Origin: Candidatus Nealsonbacteria bacterium
Lineage (GTDB): Bacteria; Patescibacteriota; Minisyncoccia; Minisyncoccales; RBG-13-42-11
Direction of reading: 5' to 3'
DNA: 64,000 bases
NCBI GenBank assembly: GCA_026396095.1
Contig: JAPLXK010000014.1
Span: 212 to 64,211, forward strand
In this document: one piece after another, positions 28,750-37,929 of the stretch
Position numbering within the stretch: position 1 is the stretch's first letter
Layout: every line of letters starts with the position of its first letter
Translations under genes and position numbers: made by a program
The notes under the pieces: generated by a model
The model's database searches: none
The model's input: only the letters and a program-made list of their open reading frames with translations
What the model was told of the DNA's origin: nothing

Positions 28750-29195
28750 TTTTTAAAAATAATCTTTCTGGTTGTTTTGTTTATAAACTCAAACTTTAAA
28801 ACCAAGGAATTTGAAGGAAGTGTTTTTTTAACCCTCTCGGCCCATTCTATGGCCACAATATTAAAAGGGTCGGAAATTATTTTTTTAAAATCCAGCGCCG
28901 ACAGGTCTTTATGGCTTTTAATCCTATAGCAATCAAGGTGATAAAAATTTTTAAAGACTGACTTTTTGTTTCTTATCGAAAACCTTTTCATTAAAACAAA
29001 AGTTGGGCTCAGCACCCTGTCTTTTATTCCTAGTCCCCTGGCAAAACCCTGTAAAAAAGTGGTTTTTCCCCCTCCCAGATCTCCCTGCAAAGCCAAAACA
29101 AAGGCGTTTCTTCTTATCGGCTCTTTTAATGTCTTTTTTGCCAAAAGCTCTCCGGCCTTCCTCGTTCTGTTTTGATTTTTGGTTAGGATTTCCAA
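28746..29195 (-). CDS. tsaE: tRNA t6A biosynthesis ATPase TsaE
   Basis: LQGDLGGGKTTFLQGFARGLG and SPTF. Overlaps the exonuclease gene by 4 nt. Confidence 0.85.
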   Translation of the reverse strand: MEILTKNQNRTRKAGELLAKKTLKEPIRRNAFVLALQGDLGGGKTTFLQGFARGLGIKDRVLSPTFVLMKRFSIRNKKSVFKNFYHLDCYRIKSHKDLSALDFKKIISDPFNIVAIEWAERVKKTLPSNSLVLKFEFINKTTRKIIFKK

Positions 29196-29330
29196 GTCAG
29201 ACTTATTCTACCCTAAAAAAAAGATTTTACTACGGGGATAATCCGAAAATATTTTTAAAAAATATCTTTCCGGTTGACTTCTTGACCTCTTTGAGATAGT
29301 TTAAATTAATCAATTTATCCTTAGTCTTCC

Positions 29331-30641
29331 ATGACTGAACAATCCCAAACCATTGTCGACGGAGTAAAAATTTCTTCTGAAATAGAGAGTGAAATTAAGA
29401 AAAAAATAAAAACTGTTCTTGATTTCAAAGAAGAAGTTGATAGGTTTTCGACCAAAAGCATTTCCGGCCTTTCGGAAATCATCATGGGCGGAGGAATAAG
29501 CTTGGATGTTTCCGATGTTCATATCGAAACAGAAAAAAAACGGGTTAGAATACGGGCAAGGCGCGATGGTATTTTACAGGACGTAACGACAATTGATGAA
29601 AAAATTTACCAAGGGCTTCTTTCCAGGATTAAGCTTTTATCCGGCCTTAAAATAAATATATCCAATCGGCCCCAAGACGGCCGATTTAGCGTTTTTTATG
29701 GCGAACAGACTGTTGAGGTCAGGGTTTCCACCCTGCCTTCAGAATACGGAGAGTCTATTGTCCTGAGGCTTTTGAACCCCAAAAATTTGATTAGTCTGGA
29801 TGCTTTGGGATTAAGAAAAGACCTGTTGGCTCTTTTAAAAAAAGAAATTGAAAAGCCTAACGGGATGATTATTGTCACTGGACCGACAGGCTCAGGAAAA
29901 ACAACAACCCTTTACGCCTTTCTCAAACAGCTTCAAGGTCCGGGGATAAAAATCATTACCATCGAAGACCCGATAGAGTATCATTTGGACGGAATTTCCC
30001 AGACCCAAGTCTCTCCTTTAAAGGGATATACCTTTGCTTCTGGTCTGAGATCAATTGTCAGACAAGATCCGGACGTGATCTTGGTGGGAGAAATACGAGA
30101 CCTGGAAACAGCGGAAATTGCTTTGCAGTCAGCCCTAACTGGACACTTGGTTTTCTCTACCCTTCATACCAACGATGCGGCCGGGACGGTAGCTCGTTTG
30201 GTCAGTCTGGGATCTAGCCCTGCAAACATTGGTCCGGCTGTAAATCTGGCGGTTGCTCAAAGATTGGTGAGAAAGATATGCAGCGATTGCAGGGAATTAA
30301 AAGAAGTGTCGCCTGAAGACTTAAGAAAGATAAAAAACGGACTGAGCAATCTTTCGAAAAATGTAGAAATCCCTAAGATTGACGAAAACCTAAAGATTCC
30401 AAAGGCCAAGGGCTGTAAATATTGCAATAACACCGGATTCAGAGGGCGAATCGGCATATTCGAGGCCTTTTTAATTGACGACGAAATAGAAAATTTTATT
30501 GTTAAAAACCCTTCTATCGCTGACTTAAAGGAGAAAGCCGTAAAAAAGGGACTTGTCACTATGTACCAGGACGGGCTGATAAAGGTTTTGGAAGGAATGA
30601 CCACCATTGAAGAGCTGGAAAGAATAGCAGGAGAGGAATAG
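29331..30641 (+). CDS. GspE/PilB-family secretion ATPase (type IV pilus or type II secretion)
   Basis: Walker A VTGPTGSGKTTTLYA, Asp box, Walker B ILVGEIRD, His box TGHLVFSTLHTN, and tetracysteine CSDC...CKYC. Confidence 0.85.
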   Translation: MTEQSQTIVDGVKISSEIESEIKKKIKTVLDFKEEVDRFSTKSISGLSEIIMGGGISLDVSDVHIETEKKRVRIRARRDGILQDVTTIDEKIYQGLLSRIKLLSGLKINISNRPQDGRFSVFYGEQTVEVRVSTLPSEYGESIVLRLLNPKNLISLDALGLRKDLLALLKKEIEKPNGMIIVTGPTGSGKTTTLYAFLKQLQGPGIKIITIEDPIEYHLDGISQTQVSPLKGYTFASGLRSIVRQDPDVILVGEIRDLETAEIALQSALTGHLVFSTLHTNDAAGTVARLVSLGSSPANIGPAVNLAVAQRLVRKICSDCRELKEVSPEDLRKIKNGLSNLSKNVEIPKIDENLKIPKAKGCKYCNNTGFRGRIGIFEAFLIDDEIENFIVKNPSIADLKEKAVKKGLVTMYQDGLIKVLEGMTTIEELERIAGEE

Positions 30642-30652
30642 CATTTTTACAA

Positions 30653-30779
30653 TCAAAAAGCCCCAGAGATGGGGGCACTTAAGCTTATAATGCAAAGTTA
30701 AGAACTTTTCCGAGGAGTAGATTCGCCGAAGCCAATCTACCCGGCTAAGAAAAACTCCACGCCCCCATCTCTAGGGCTT
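30653..30779 (-). ncRNA. Candidate ~125-nt structured small RNA, antisense to the pilB-LTD intercistronic region
   Basis: Minus-strand promoter TTGACA-N17-TAGAAT at 30788..30816. The 5' arm AAGCCCTAGAGATGGGGGC pairs 18/19 with the 3' arm GCCCCCATCTCTGGGGCTT. An internal hairpin is capped by a cUUCGg tetraloop (GTAGATTGGCTTCGGCGAATCTAC). The 3' hairpin is followed by TTTTTGATT. Confidence 0.5.
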
Positions 30780-30787
30780 GATGTATT

Positions 30788-30816
30788 ATTCTAATATATT
30801 ATGTTGAATTTGTCAA
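30788..30816 (-). promoter_or_regulatory. Sigma70-like promoter TTGACA-N17-TAGAAT (minus strand)
   Basis: The reverse complement of 30781..30816 reads TTGACAaattcaacataatatatTAGAATaatacat. It overlaps the first codons of the LTD gene on the other strand. Confidence 0.5.
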
Positions 30817-32027
30817 GAGGGATCGCCTTTCTGCTGTTTTTGCTTTTGTTTTTTCCTTTTCCGTCTTTTGGCTCCCCCGATGTGATTATTAACGAAATCG
30901 CATGGATGGGAACAGAAAAAAGCAGCAGCGACGAATGGATAGAGCTATACAACAACAGCGACTCTCCTGTTTCTGTCGATAATTGGACCCTAAAATCATT
31001 AACAGGGACTCTGAAAATAAACCTAAAAGGAATAATCCCGTCAAAAGGATTTTATCTTTTAGAGAGAAGCGATGACGATACGATTCCCAGCGTTAAGGCT
31101 GACTTGATCTATACTGGAGCCCTAAAAAACACTGGAGAAATTATAGAGCTTTGCAATAACCTTGTCAACTCTGTGGATTCCGTTGATTGTTCGAACGGCT
31201 GGCCGGCCGGAGACAACGAAACAAAGCAAACAATGGAAAGAATTGCCCTGGGCTCGGACTGGCAGACAAGCAAAGATGTAGGGGGCACGCCGAAGTCTCA
31301 AAACAGCGCAGGCGCCGCCGCAAAGGCAGGCCTAGCGCCAGCAAAAGAAACTCCGGTAAAAACTACAACCGATGAAAAGCCAGCAGAATCGCCAGTAGCC
31401 GATCTGTCGCTAGGCTATCCTACGGGGATTATTTTAAATGAAGTCCTTCCCTCTCCAGAAGGGGCAGATGACCAAAACGAGTGGATTGAAATTTTTAATC
31501 AAAATATTTTTAAGGTTGACCTGTCCGGCTGGAGTATTTCTGATTCCGCGGGGTCAACGAAAACCTATATTTTCCCGGAAAACACAAAAATATTGCCAAA
31601 AGGATTTCTTGTTTTGCCCCGACCACTGACAGGAATTGTTTTAAATAATGAGGGGGATGGCTTAACGCTCTTCGGTCCTGACGAAAAAATAATAGATTCT
31701 GTAGTCTACGGCAAGGCAGTCCTGAAAGAATCATACGCCCGAACTGATTCTTCGTGGTCATGGAGCTCTGCTCTTACCCCCGGAGCAACAAATAAAATTA
31801 TTTCCCCGGGACAAGAAAAGCCGCAGGAAAAGCAAGTCAAAGGCCAAGACGAAGAATCGGCGACAAGCGAAAAAAGATTAGCGGCAATCAGCGAGCCGAT
31901 TAAGGAGATAAAAGAAAAGAAAGGATACAATTCTTTTTCTATTTCCTTTGTCGCCTTGACTATTTCTCTTTTCTCAGGAATAGTAATCTTAGCGCTAAAA
32001 AAGAAAACCAAACAATTAAGCAAATAA
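30801..32027 (+). CDS. Secreted, C-terminally anchored protein with two lamin-tail domains
   Basis: Signal peptide. Two LTD signatures: VIINEIAWMG...SDEWIELYN and IILNEVLPSPEG...NEWIEIFN. Ala/Pro/Lys-rich linker and a C-terminal TM helix. Confidence 0.8.
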   Translation: MLNLSRGIAFLLFLLLFFPFPSFGSPDVIINEIAWMGTEKSSSDEWIELYNNSDSPVSVDNWTLKSLTGTLKINLKGIIPSKGFYLLERSDDDTIPSVKADLIYTGALKNTGEIIELCNNLVNSVDSVDCSNGWPAGDNETKQTMERIALGSDWQTSKDVGGTPKSQNSAGAAAKAGLAPAKETPVKTTTDEKPAESPVADLSLGYPTGIILNEVLPSPEGADDQNEWIEIFNQNIFKVDLSGWSISDSAGSTKTYIFPENTKILPKGFLVLPRPLTGIVLNNEGDGLTLFGPDEKIIDSVVYGKAVLKESYARTDSSWSWSSALTPGATNKIISPGQEKPQEKQVKGQDEESATSEKRLAAISEPIKEIKEKKGYNSFSISFVALTISLFSGIVILALKKKTKQLSK

Positions 32028-36750: not shown

Positions 36751-37929
36751 CTAGCTGGTTTTTATCGGCATTATCAAATAAAGGTAATTCTCGTCCTTTT
36801 TGGGCCTTAAAACTCCTGCCTTGTCTCCGCTGGTCAGCTCCAGAATTAACTCAGAGTCTTTTTCTTTTCCAGCCCCCTCCCGGCCGGAATTTTCTTTTTT
36901 TGAAACCATGCTCATTAGTCCGTCCAGTAAAAATTTATGGTTAAAAGAAATTTCGCAAGGCTTGCCCTCAACCTTGCAGTTTAAAACGCCGTAATGCTCT
37001 CCCACATCAACATTTTGACTGAACAGATTCAGTTGATTGTTTTTAGGATCAATTTTTAATTTTACCTCATTGATCTTGCTGCTAAAAAGAGAAGCTAGTT
37101 TAACCTGGCTGATAAGCTCGTTCGTGGAGACGGTAACTTTCGTGTCGTGCTTCTTGGGGATAATCTCTTGATAATTGGGGTACTCTCCTTCTATCAGCCG
37201 TGAAATAAGCTGAATTTGAGGGTGGGGAGTTTCAGAAAGAGGTGTTTCGAATAAGACCTGGTTGGGTGAAAAACAAATAGTCAGATCTCCTTCTTTTTCT
37301 CCAAATATATTAATGACTTCTTTGGCTGCCCTTTGGGGTAAAATTAAAGAATAGTCTTTTGAAATGCTAGATGAGGAAAAGTCTGCGTATAACTTTTTTT
37401 CCCCCAGCCTAAAGCTGTCTGTCGCAGCCATGGTAATCATATTTTTCTGAAACAAAAAGTATATTCCTGAAATTTCCGGCTTAAAGGAAGAATAGCTTGC
37501 GATATCAACAACACTGCTTAGGTTTTGACAAAAAAGCTTACTCGGCATTGTAATTTTTTCTTCATCTGAAATCTTGGGGATAATAGGAAAATCTTCTGGA
37601 TTAAATCCCTTAATCAGGGTTTGATAATTTTCACATTCTATTTTTAAAGATAAGTCTTTTATTTCCAAGTTTACTGGTTTATTTGGTAAAAAATTAACAA
37701 AACTTGATAAGATCCTGGAGGGAAGAGCTATTTTTCCTTCTTTTTCTGTTTTCACTAAAGACCACCAATTAATTCCTATTTCCAAATCTGTGGCCGTGAG
37801 GTTTAAAAAATTTTTCTCCACGGAAAGTAAGATATTATTCAATATCGGCAAGTTTAAAGATTTTCCTGAAACTCTTTCCACAACACTGATCCCTTCTTTT
37901 AATCTCTCTTTTAATATTATTGTTTTCAT
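36751..37929 (-). CDS. dnaN: DNA polymerase III beta sliding clamp
   Basis: 392 aa immediately downstream of dnaA. LNLTATDLEIG, MAATDSFRL and FNHKFLLD are clamp signatures. Confidence 0.85.
   Translation of the reverse strand: MKTIILKERLKEGISVVERVSGKSLNLPILNNILLSVEKNFLNLTATDLEIGINWWSLVKTEKEGKIALPSRILSSFVNFLPNKPVNLEIKDLSLKIECENYQTLIKGFNPEDFPIIPKISDEEKITMPSKLFCQNLSSVVDIASYSSFKPEISGIYFLFQKNMITMAATDSFRLGEKKLYADFSSSSISKDYSLILPQRAAKEVINIFGEKEGDLTICFSPNQVLFETPLSETPHPQIQLISRLIEGEYPNYQEIIPKKHDTKVTVSTNELISQVKLASLFSSKINEVKLKIDPKNNQLNLFSQNVDVGEHYGVLNCKVEGKPCEISFNHKFLLDGLMSMVSKKENSGREGAGKEKDSELILELTSGDKAGVLRPKKDENYLYLIMPIKTS

Follow-up and report, generated by a model that had tools for sequence, protein, structure and literature searches.

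The small RNA and its predicted fold

We analysed a stretch of 64,000 nt from Candidatus Nealsonbacteria bacterium (contig JAPLXK010000014.1, positions 212 to 64,211; hereafter the window). The minus strand of the spacer between pilB and a gene for a lamin-tail-domain (LTD) protein almost certainly encodes an independently transcribed, constitutively folded small RNA of ~128 nt, which belongs to an undescribed family of structured RNAs in Paceibacteria of the candidate phyla radiation (CPR). A preliminary description, made from the sequence alone, had proposed a promoter- and terminator-bounded structured RNA on this strand, and covariation among relatives, a strand bias in G-U pairs and a conserved promoter all support it. 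The elements of the RNA gene, followed by its two neighbours, are as follows.

30816..30788, minus: small-RNA promoter TTGACA-17-TAGAAT, agreeing with the consensus at 11/12 positions
30811..30816, minus: -35 hexamer TTGACA, within LTD codons 4-6
30787..30793, minus: -10 hexamer TAGAAT with the next A (TAGAATA, that is TAnnnTA, a symmetrical -10 element)
30653..30781, minus: predicted small-RNA transcript of ~128 nt, its start placed from the -10 element and its 3′ end set in the U-tract
30761..30779, minus: 5′ arm of P1, AAGCCCUAGAGAUGGGGGC, starting eight nt past the -10 element
30748..30758, minus: 5′ strand of P2, GGAGUUUUUCU
Asymmetric internal loop, minus: UAGCC on the 5′ side, C on the 3′ side (family consensus UC)
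30715..30742, minus: P3 hairpin, GTAGATTGGCTTCGGCGAATCTAC, with an invariant GG..CC base, a conserved UGG and a UUCG cap at 30727-30730
Immediately 3′ of P3, minus: conserved CCUC
30701..30711, minus: 3′ strand of P2, GGAAAAGUUCU, with many G-U pairs that form on this strand only
30677..30698, minus: junction UAACUUU and the weaker P4 hairpin (UAACUUUGC...AAGCUUAAGU)
30658..30676, minus: 3′ arm of P1, GCCCCCAUCUCUGGGGCUU, which is also a local hairpin
30655..30659, minus: U-tract UUUUU at the predicted 3′ end, 13 nt short of the pilB stop codon
29331..30641, plus: pilB, encoding a PilB/GspE-family ATPase (Pfam T2SSE, E = 3e-115), convergent with the small RNA
30801..32027, plus: LTD gene (Pfam LTD, E = 5.5e-29), divergent from the small RNA

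Modelling folds the RNA into a three-way junction, in which a closing helix of 19–22 bp (P1) would join both ends of the molecule and enclose a P2-P3 rod and a small P4 hairpin. The two P1 arms, whose complementarity the preliminary description had already pointed out, are 19 nt long, 95% complementary and 84 nt apart, and their sole mismatch becomes a G-U pair in the minus-strand RNA; the arm motif was found only at these two places in the window (chance expectation 0.05). The inner hairpin described earlier is likewise present, with 9 base pairs and a UUCG cap, plus one G-G mismatch. The minus strand folded at −67.5 kcal/mol (z = −7.95), a value that none of 200 shuffled sequences matched, and the plus strand at −53.2 kcal/mol (z = −6.9). 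It had also been suggested that each arm can fold either locally or with the other, giving two mutually exclusive structures. Local arm hairpins are possible in the window (−6.9 and −9.3 kcal/mol), and to this extent the suggestion holds weakly, but a fold containing them totals only ~−43 kcal/mol compared with −66 kcal/mol for the long-range P1 fold, and at equilibrium the long helix wins completely, with a P1 pairing probability of ~1.0.

Relatives carry the RNA in convergent orientation behind pilB

To find relatives of the RNA, 80 pilB-anchored loci were taken from species-level genomes (GTDB), and nhmmer detected the spacer sequence directly downstream of pilB in ~25 of them, each of which folds alike. 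We aligned 27 sequences with MAFFT and registered the structure by hand (alignment A1; P1 21 bp, P2 12, P3 10, P4 5). In the raw MAFFT alignment, register shifts hid P2 from RNAalifold, and the sequences were therefore registered manually and realigned to the model. A covariance model built from A1 (R1) found 28 loci at 76–135 bits on the strand opposite pilB, whereas the pilB-sense strand reached 24–48 bits, and these homologues lie directly 3′ of pilB in 28 species-level genomes. The window itself, which was included in the model, matched at 30654-30783 on the minus strand with 95.8 bits (E = 1.4e-22). It has the P1-P2-P3-P4 fold, the GG..UGG-cap-C..CCUC core, the TTGACA-17-TAnAAT promoter and the convergent pilB within 150 nt that define the family.

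We also scanned a metagenome collection, irrespective of gene context, for the pattern TGGGGG..GGN6TGGYTN3RCN9CCTC..CCCCCA, which matched at least 120 stretches; the same pattern had 0 matches in viral contigs. Among the matches listed, 105 have pilB in convergent orientation no more than 150 nt from the RNA 3′ end, and 4 carry an insertion of 150–950 nt between the RNA and pilB, one of them like an insertion sequence; 9 lie at a contig end and 2 are high-GC false positives. Thus, all 109 genuine assessable members among the listed matches are convergent with pilB. At L178:640-1600, the insertion between RNA and pilB is ~950 nt long and contains its own TTGACA..TATAAT promoter and a transposase-like frame. 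The RNA is single-copy, occurring once in the window and once per locus, and in the listed matches it stands beside pilB.

This position is retained where both flanks change, and in rearranged genomes the next gene is TsaE or MurE. Across the family, the next gene in pilB sense is LTD in 47 members and another gene, mostly RuvB, in 42. The element co-occurs with pilB, which is convergent in all assessable members, and with LTD in only about half of them. As the neighbour on that side varies between LTD and RuvB and the constant partner is pilB, the earlier idea that the RNA gates LTD expression finds no support.

The window and its four closest relatives average 89% column identity over the RNA and its promoter, whereas the PilB proteins of these relatives are 73–86% and their LTD proteins 56–71% identical to those of the window; L109 is one of the close metagenome relatives of the window RNA. 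Several closely related genomes, among them loci L001, L003 and L004, are labelled 'uncultured Candidatus Saccharibacteria'. These labels look unreliable, because gene order and PilB identity group the loci with Paceibacterota, Nealsonbacteria and Minisyncoccales.

Covariation supports the helices on the strand opposite pilB

In the 27 sequences of A1, 92.6% of the cells in paired columns are paired and 29 of the 48 pairs have changed on both sides, and none of 500 shuffles reached any of these measures. In an alignment of 95 distinct sequences fitted to the model (A3), 92.9% of cells are paired and 39 of the 48 pairs have changed on both sides (0/500 shuffles); controls with slid partners gave 38–59% paired in the same 95 sequences. 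Both-side changes affect 17 of the 21 pairs of P1 (95% of cells paired), 11 of the 12 pairs of P2 and all five of P4 (80% paired). Hence, the arms are conserved and covary in relatives, as the preliminary proposal of a structured RNA entails. Ranking by mutual information returned the model's own pairs at the top, plus one covarying pair that extends P3, and revealed no pseudoknot and no alternative pairing in the 95-sequence alignment. The two competing folds do not behave as a conserved switch: local hairpins of −4 kcal/mol or better can form in 46–47 of 95 members (both arms at once in 36), and they show no covariation.

The paired cells include 555 G-U or U-G combinations in the minus-strand reading compared with 74 A-C or C-A combinations, and this excess indicates that the folded strand is the one opposite pilB. 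Whereas the helices change by compensation, the apical loop is simply varied: it reads UUCG, GAGA, UAAG, UCCG and others, forming UNCG-like or GNRA-like caps. The variability of its sequence marks it as a structural cap and not a recognition loop.

We also considered whether the spacer encodes a small protein. Two minus-strand open reading frames overlap it (56 and 54 amino acids), neither with a Pfam hit, and the only public contig with this PilB shows the spacer without any called gene. A small-protein reading was rejected on these grounds and because the substitutions are compensatory and not codon-like.

A near-consensus promoter overlaps the start of the next gene

The preliminary description had placed a promoter TTGACA-N17-TAGAAT across the first codons of the LTD gene, and it is present there on the minus strand. 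Only 7 sites in the window agree with the promoter consensus at 11/12 positions or better, which puts the small-RNA promoter among the strongest in the window. In 90 of 96 members, P1 is preceded by a promoter with at least 10/12 consensus positions; an exact TTGACA occurs in more than 90 of the 96, and a 17-nt spacer is usual. The LTD start codon (30801) falls within the spacer of the small-RNA promoter.

The -10 element takes the TAnnnTA form in 64 of 87 members. Relative to it, the neighbouring gene starts at +8 nt in 42 of 79 members and at +13 nt in 18 of 79, measured to the start codon. In bidirectional promoters, according to a passage of PMC10268837 that cites Warman et al. 2021, -7T and -11A pair reciprocally and divergent starts lie ~18 bp apart. 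The TAnnnTA element and the fixed start-codon distance of the RNA family resemble, and are compatible with, what that passage describes; this geometry fits a bidirectional promoter that would produce a nearly leaderless LTD or ruvB mRNA. In the window, the predicted plus-strand start would fall at ~30799-30801, giving a nearly leaderless LTD mRNA. Such an mRNA is consistent with the lack of Shine-Dalgarno-like sequences in this region: none was found within 30 nt upstream of the starts of 13 genes (24-38 kb), whose leaders are A+U-rich. With a bidirectional start near the LTD ATG, LTD mRNA and small RNA would diverge without overlap. The fixed +8 offset and the TAnnnTA element thus point to a putative divergent LTD mRNA, with which the earlier view of the RNA as antisense to whatever transcript links pilB to LTD would be at odds.

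We found no conserved pilB-sense promoter within the small-RNA gene; 9/12 consensus positions were reached in 14 of 95 members, at scattered places. We likewise rejected the idea that the RNA gene contains a promoter serving the downstream gene, as none is conserved across the 95 members. A perfect sigma-70 promoter (TTGACA-17-TATAAT, 12/12) lies at 31140-31168 on the minus strand, inside the LTD gene, and reads antisense through the 5′ part of LTD toward the small-RNA gene. It is kept in the closest relative, L109, and not in L145 or L189, and it may drive a second antisense transcript.

The predicted RNA ends before the pilB coding sequence

An intrinsic terminator is a G+C-rich hairpin directly before a U-tract on the transcribed strand. 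On the minus strand of the window, a hairpin (30676..30660) is followed by TTTTTGATT; the 3′ arm of P1, itself a hairpin, continues into UUUUUGAUU. The second arm therefore has the sequence of the canonical intrinsic terminator that the preliminary description had seen in it, and the small RNA as predicted overlaps neither the pilB nor the LTD coding sequence. Across the family, P1 leads into a U-rich tail in 67 of 95 members; a further G+C-rich terminator hairpin is found in 23 of 95, mostly where the 3′ arm cannot fold on itself. In the subgroup of the window, the 3′-arm hairpin might at most act as a kinetic terminator, the RNA later settling into P1.

In 65 of 95 members the RNA has an A-rich 5′ flank, and most members place the hairpin between A-rich and U-rich tracts, a layout that would suit a bidirectional terminator between convergent transcription units. 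In the window, the pilB-sense side is merely U-rich (UUGAUGUAUUAUU), with no clean U-run past the element. Unlike a plain terminator or promoter, the element contains an internal structure of 85 nt, comprising P2, P3, P4 and the core, which is conserved and covaries although neither of these duties needs it.

Longer forms with a shared core, and intermediate forms

Longer forms of ~150 nt occur in Lloydbacteria-type genomes, in RAAC4_OD1 and in a Nomurabacteria genome, and the core also recurs in Jorgensenbacteria. They were found with a regular expression for the core motif and folded separately. The Lloydbacteria-type long forms escaped detection by model R1; because it did not bridge long and short forms, their homology with the short form is proposed from core, topology, context and promoter. 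The shared core reads AGGA-N-YUGG-[hairpin]-CUGG-N-UCCYC, and the long forms also have a long closing helix, a UUUAACU junction motif, a P4 hairpin and a TTGACA promoter; a UAAACUUU-like junction motif is present in them too. Their position and orientation behind pilB are those of the short form. The core pattern was present in 12 of 24 distant loci, for which a rough estimate of the chance frequency is below 1% per locus, and nine Lloydbacteria-type sequences have covariation support of their own and an additional 5′ hairpin. Five loci (L056, L037, L036, L039 and L068) have intermediate forms, with CUGUGGGC/GCCCACAG as the inner portion of P1.

In eight loci (L034, L035, L048, L050, L051, L053, L059 and L073), a conserved box GGCAAGAUAAUGAGAUGA followed by a G+C-rich terminator hairpin lies 60–100 nt past the long-form RNA and before pilB, on the RNA strand. 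The box may belong to a much longer transcript or to a second element.

The RNA matches no known family

Rfam 15 (4227 models), searched over 30300-31200 with E values up to 10, returned noise only, the best match reaching 20 bits against a threshold of 45; the models include those for SRP RNA (RF00169, RF01854), 6S RNA (RF00013), tmRNA, RNase P and 5S RNA. At gathering thresholds, the whole window yielded 5 tRNAs only, and nothing was found on the element in 7 long-form loci or in 16 further members. ARAGORN also reported 5 tRNAs and no tmRNA in the window. The remark in the preliminary description that the element resembles neither SRP, 6S and tmRNA nor RNase P is borne out by these scans. 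In a keyword search of full-text literature on CPR, Patescibacteria or Parcubacteria non-coding RNA, which cannot prove absence, the small RNA was not described.

Signal recognition particle (SRP) RNA has a conserved apical GNRA-type tetraloop and the symmetric and asymmetric loops of domain IV, 6S RNA is a rod of ~180 nt in which a large central bubble leaves both strands unpaired, and tmRNA combines a tRNA-like domain with a tag reading frame. We rejected SRP (4.5S) RNA because the apical loop varies freely, domain-IV features are absent and no SRP model matched. 6S RNA was rejected because on the 5′ strand of the short form P1 and P2 are just 2–6 nt apart and no 6S model matched. An anti-Shine-Dalgarno role of CCUC was also discarded, as no Shine-Dalgarno sequence precedes the 13 genes inspected and CCUC is largely paired.

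In general build, the RNA nevertheless resembles 4.5S/SRP RNA, 6S RNA and bacterial Y RNAs, which are 100–200 nt long, have their ends paired in a long closing helix and a dedicated strong promoter, and show compensatory changes together with sequence conservation concentrated in internal loops and junction. Conservation of loops and junctions with drifting helices is typical of protein-bound RNAs. Unlike these RNAs, it has no covariance-model match, no conserved GNRA tetraloop and no 6S-like bubble, is absent from at least one related lineage and is strictly tied to one neighbouring gene. It resembles the orphan structured-RNA motifs of Rfam in being defined by covariation and gene context, with no coding signal; their function, too, was unknown at discovery. 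It differs from catalogued orphan motifs in being missing from Rfam 15, confined to Paceibacteria (CPR) and defined by association with a convergent rather than an upstream gene.

A proposed protein-bound RNA at the boundary of the pilB locus, and rival readings

On the evidence of sequence and predicted fold, we suggest as the likeliest reading a stable, protein-recognised RNA whose gene is also a boundary module of the pilB locus, although we consider this reading evenly poised between right and wrong. The near-consensus sigma-70 promoter would drive the small RNA, and P1, or in the window subgroup the local 3′-arm hairpin, would end it together with the U-tract shortly before the pilB stop codon. 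A putative protein would recognise the conserved junction and internal loop, with no role for base pairing to a target. Such recognition is suggested by helices that drift by compensation while loops and core are conserved, by the inert cap and by the paired ends. At the same time, P1 between an A-run and a U-run would terminate both pilB transcription and the small RNA, and the symmetrical -10 element would also launch LTD or ruvB as a nearly leaderless mRNA. That the RNA always accompanies pilB would be explained by this double duty as terminator and promoter, or by a direct functional link between the two.

Several points weigh against this reading. The start site, 3′ end, abundance and stability of the transcript are all deduced from the letters of the genome. 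In the metagenome set, the invariance of TGGGGG, TGG, CCTC and CCCCCA is partly imposed by the search pattern, and alignment A3 was fitted to the covariance model; A1 is not subject to the search-pattern bias and leads to the same result. The long-form RNAs lie 100–550 nt from pilB, often with a terminator of their own, so that the sharing of a terminator alone cannot explain the linkage. Finally, in eight loci of one related lineage (L013, L014, L020, L022, L023, L027, L029 and L063) the pilB stop codon abuts the ruvB start, and the RNA was not found within 9 kb. The RNA is thus dispensable or relocated in this lineage, which weakens a housekeeping reading. The same lineage is a natural contrast group for whatever co-varies with the RNA.

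The main rival, a cis-acting antisense or transcription-interference effect on pilB, is a real if minor possibility. Strong convergent transcription and pairing with the pilB 3′ untranslated region (UTR) would set the stability of the mRNA, for example through RNase III, as well as the amount of transcription reaching the downstream genes. Such an effect would account for the tail-to-tail linkage with pilB in every assessable member, through flank rearrangements and across distant lineages, including those in which the RNA has its own terminator far from pilB. It also agrees with the lack of a conserved pilB-sense promoter inside the RNA gene, and the A-rich 5′ flank of most members would put a pilB-sense U-run after the whole element, making the pilB 3′ UTR fully complementary to the RNA. 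However, antisense pairing needs neither the three-way junction nor the conserved internal-loop nucleotides and core, the apical loop is an inert, variable cap with no conserved kissing loop, and both partners would be very stable rods that pair slowly. In the window, moreover, a clean U-run is missing past the element on the pilB-sense strand. The antisense effect and the protein-bound boundary RNA could both be true.

A ligand- or protein-sensing RNA of the riboswitch type, whose terminator would decide on antisense read-through into pilB, is improbable. Two regulatory RNAs stand antisense at the 3′ end of their target gene: AspocR of Listeria, which is under a B12 riboswitch, and the S-box-controlled RNA at the ubiG operon of Clostridium. 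Like them, the RNA described here has its own promoter, a P1-closed structured domain and a terminator U-tract directly behind a convergent protein gene; junction and loop nucleotides are conserved, and local arm hairpins are available as an alternative fold in half of the members. Unlike them, it has no conserved or covarying alternative pairing, and its near-perfect closing helix of 19–22 bp, paired with a probability of ~1.0, is far too stable for ligand switching. A second dedicated terminator follows P1 in 23 of the 95 members, and termination falls before any overlap with the pilB coding sequence.

The two-state switch of the preliminary description, a minus-strand RNA antisense to the pilB-LTD linker that would gate LTD, is very improbable. 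Both arms in the window can fold locally and the promoter overlaps the LTD start, but the long-range fold is favoured by ~23 kcal/mol, local hairpins exist in about half of the family, an LTD neighbour likewise, and the start-codon offset suggests a divergent, non-overlapping LTD mRNA. Equally, we hold it to be extremely improbable that the pilB-sense strand is the functional one, as a 3′ UTR, terminator or intercistronic processing hairpin with the minus promoter incidental. An inverted repeat is inherently two-stranded and the plus strand also folds well, but the G-U excess, the model scores and the promoter in 90 of 96 members all favour the minus strand, and the U-tracts and extra terminators lie on its side.

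A divergent housekeeping RNA (SRP 4.5S, 6S, 5S, tmRNA or RNase P) or a DNA palindrome or mobile repeat is largely refuted and retains next to no probability: the closed rod, strong promoter and wide conservation within one bacterial class would suit the former, which the negative Rfam and ARAGORN scans, the unconserved apical loop, the missing 6S bubble and the absence from one related lineage oppose, and we rejected the latter because the element is present in one copy per window and locus, at the same place beside pilB and without viral matches, and because strand-specific G-U pairs and a promoter oppose a role of the DNA only.

Genomic surroundings

Other genes around pilB and LTD in the window encode TsaE, a 5′-3′ exonuclease, YebC, RuvC and DnaN; together with the relatives of PilB, they assign the window to Paceibacteria/Parcubacteria of the CPR. 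Gene orientation flips at ~29195-29331: the six genes to the left are on the minus strand, and pilB, LTD, yebC and ruvC to the right are on the plus strand. Near 30 kb the sign of both the AT skew and the GC skew reverses, and the minus-strand gene dnaN occupies 36751-37929. The region may lie close to a replication origin.

Implications for RNA biology in the CPR

To our knowledge, the CPR (Patescibacteria) hold a large share of bacterial diversity, and almost nothing is known of their non-coding RNAs. The present RNA is a well-supported orphan class, with more than 100 distinct representatives, helices maintained by compensatory changes and a near-unbroken association with pilB. As structured small RNAs between a promoter and a terminator, its members are of a well-known general type, but the family is new and unusual in its confinement to the CPR, its coupling to pilB and its compact packing. 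Within ~160 bp, the locus combines an RNA gene, a putative two-way terminator and a putative two-way promoter, and so illustrates the compaction of streamlined genomes.

PilB is the motor ATPase of type IV pili, by which CPR episymbionts are believed to attach and to take up DNA. We put forward, as a rather unlikely conjecture, that the RNA is a dedicated trans-acting, protein-binding partner of the CPR type IV pilus and DNA-uptake machinery, which would control pilus assembly or competence and whose level would be set against pilB transcription by convergence. If the RNA does bind a pilus or competence factor, this would be a new regulatory principle, the control of a PilB-type ATPase system by an RNA. 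Even without such a partner, it is a family missing from Rfam. Its covariance model, defined boundaries and core motif provide a testable handle on RNA-level control in the CPR.

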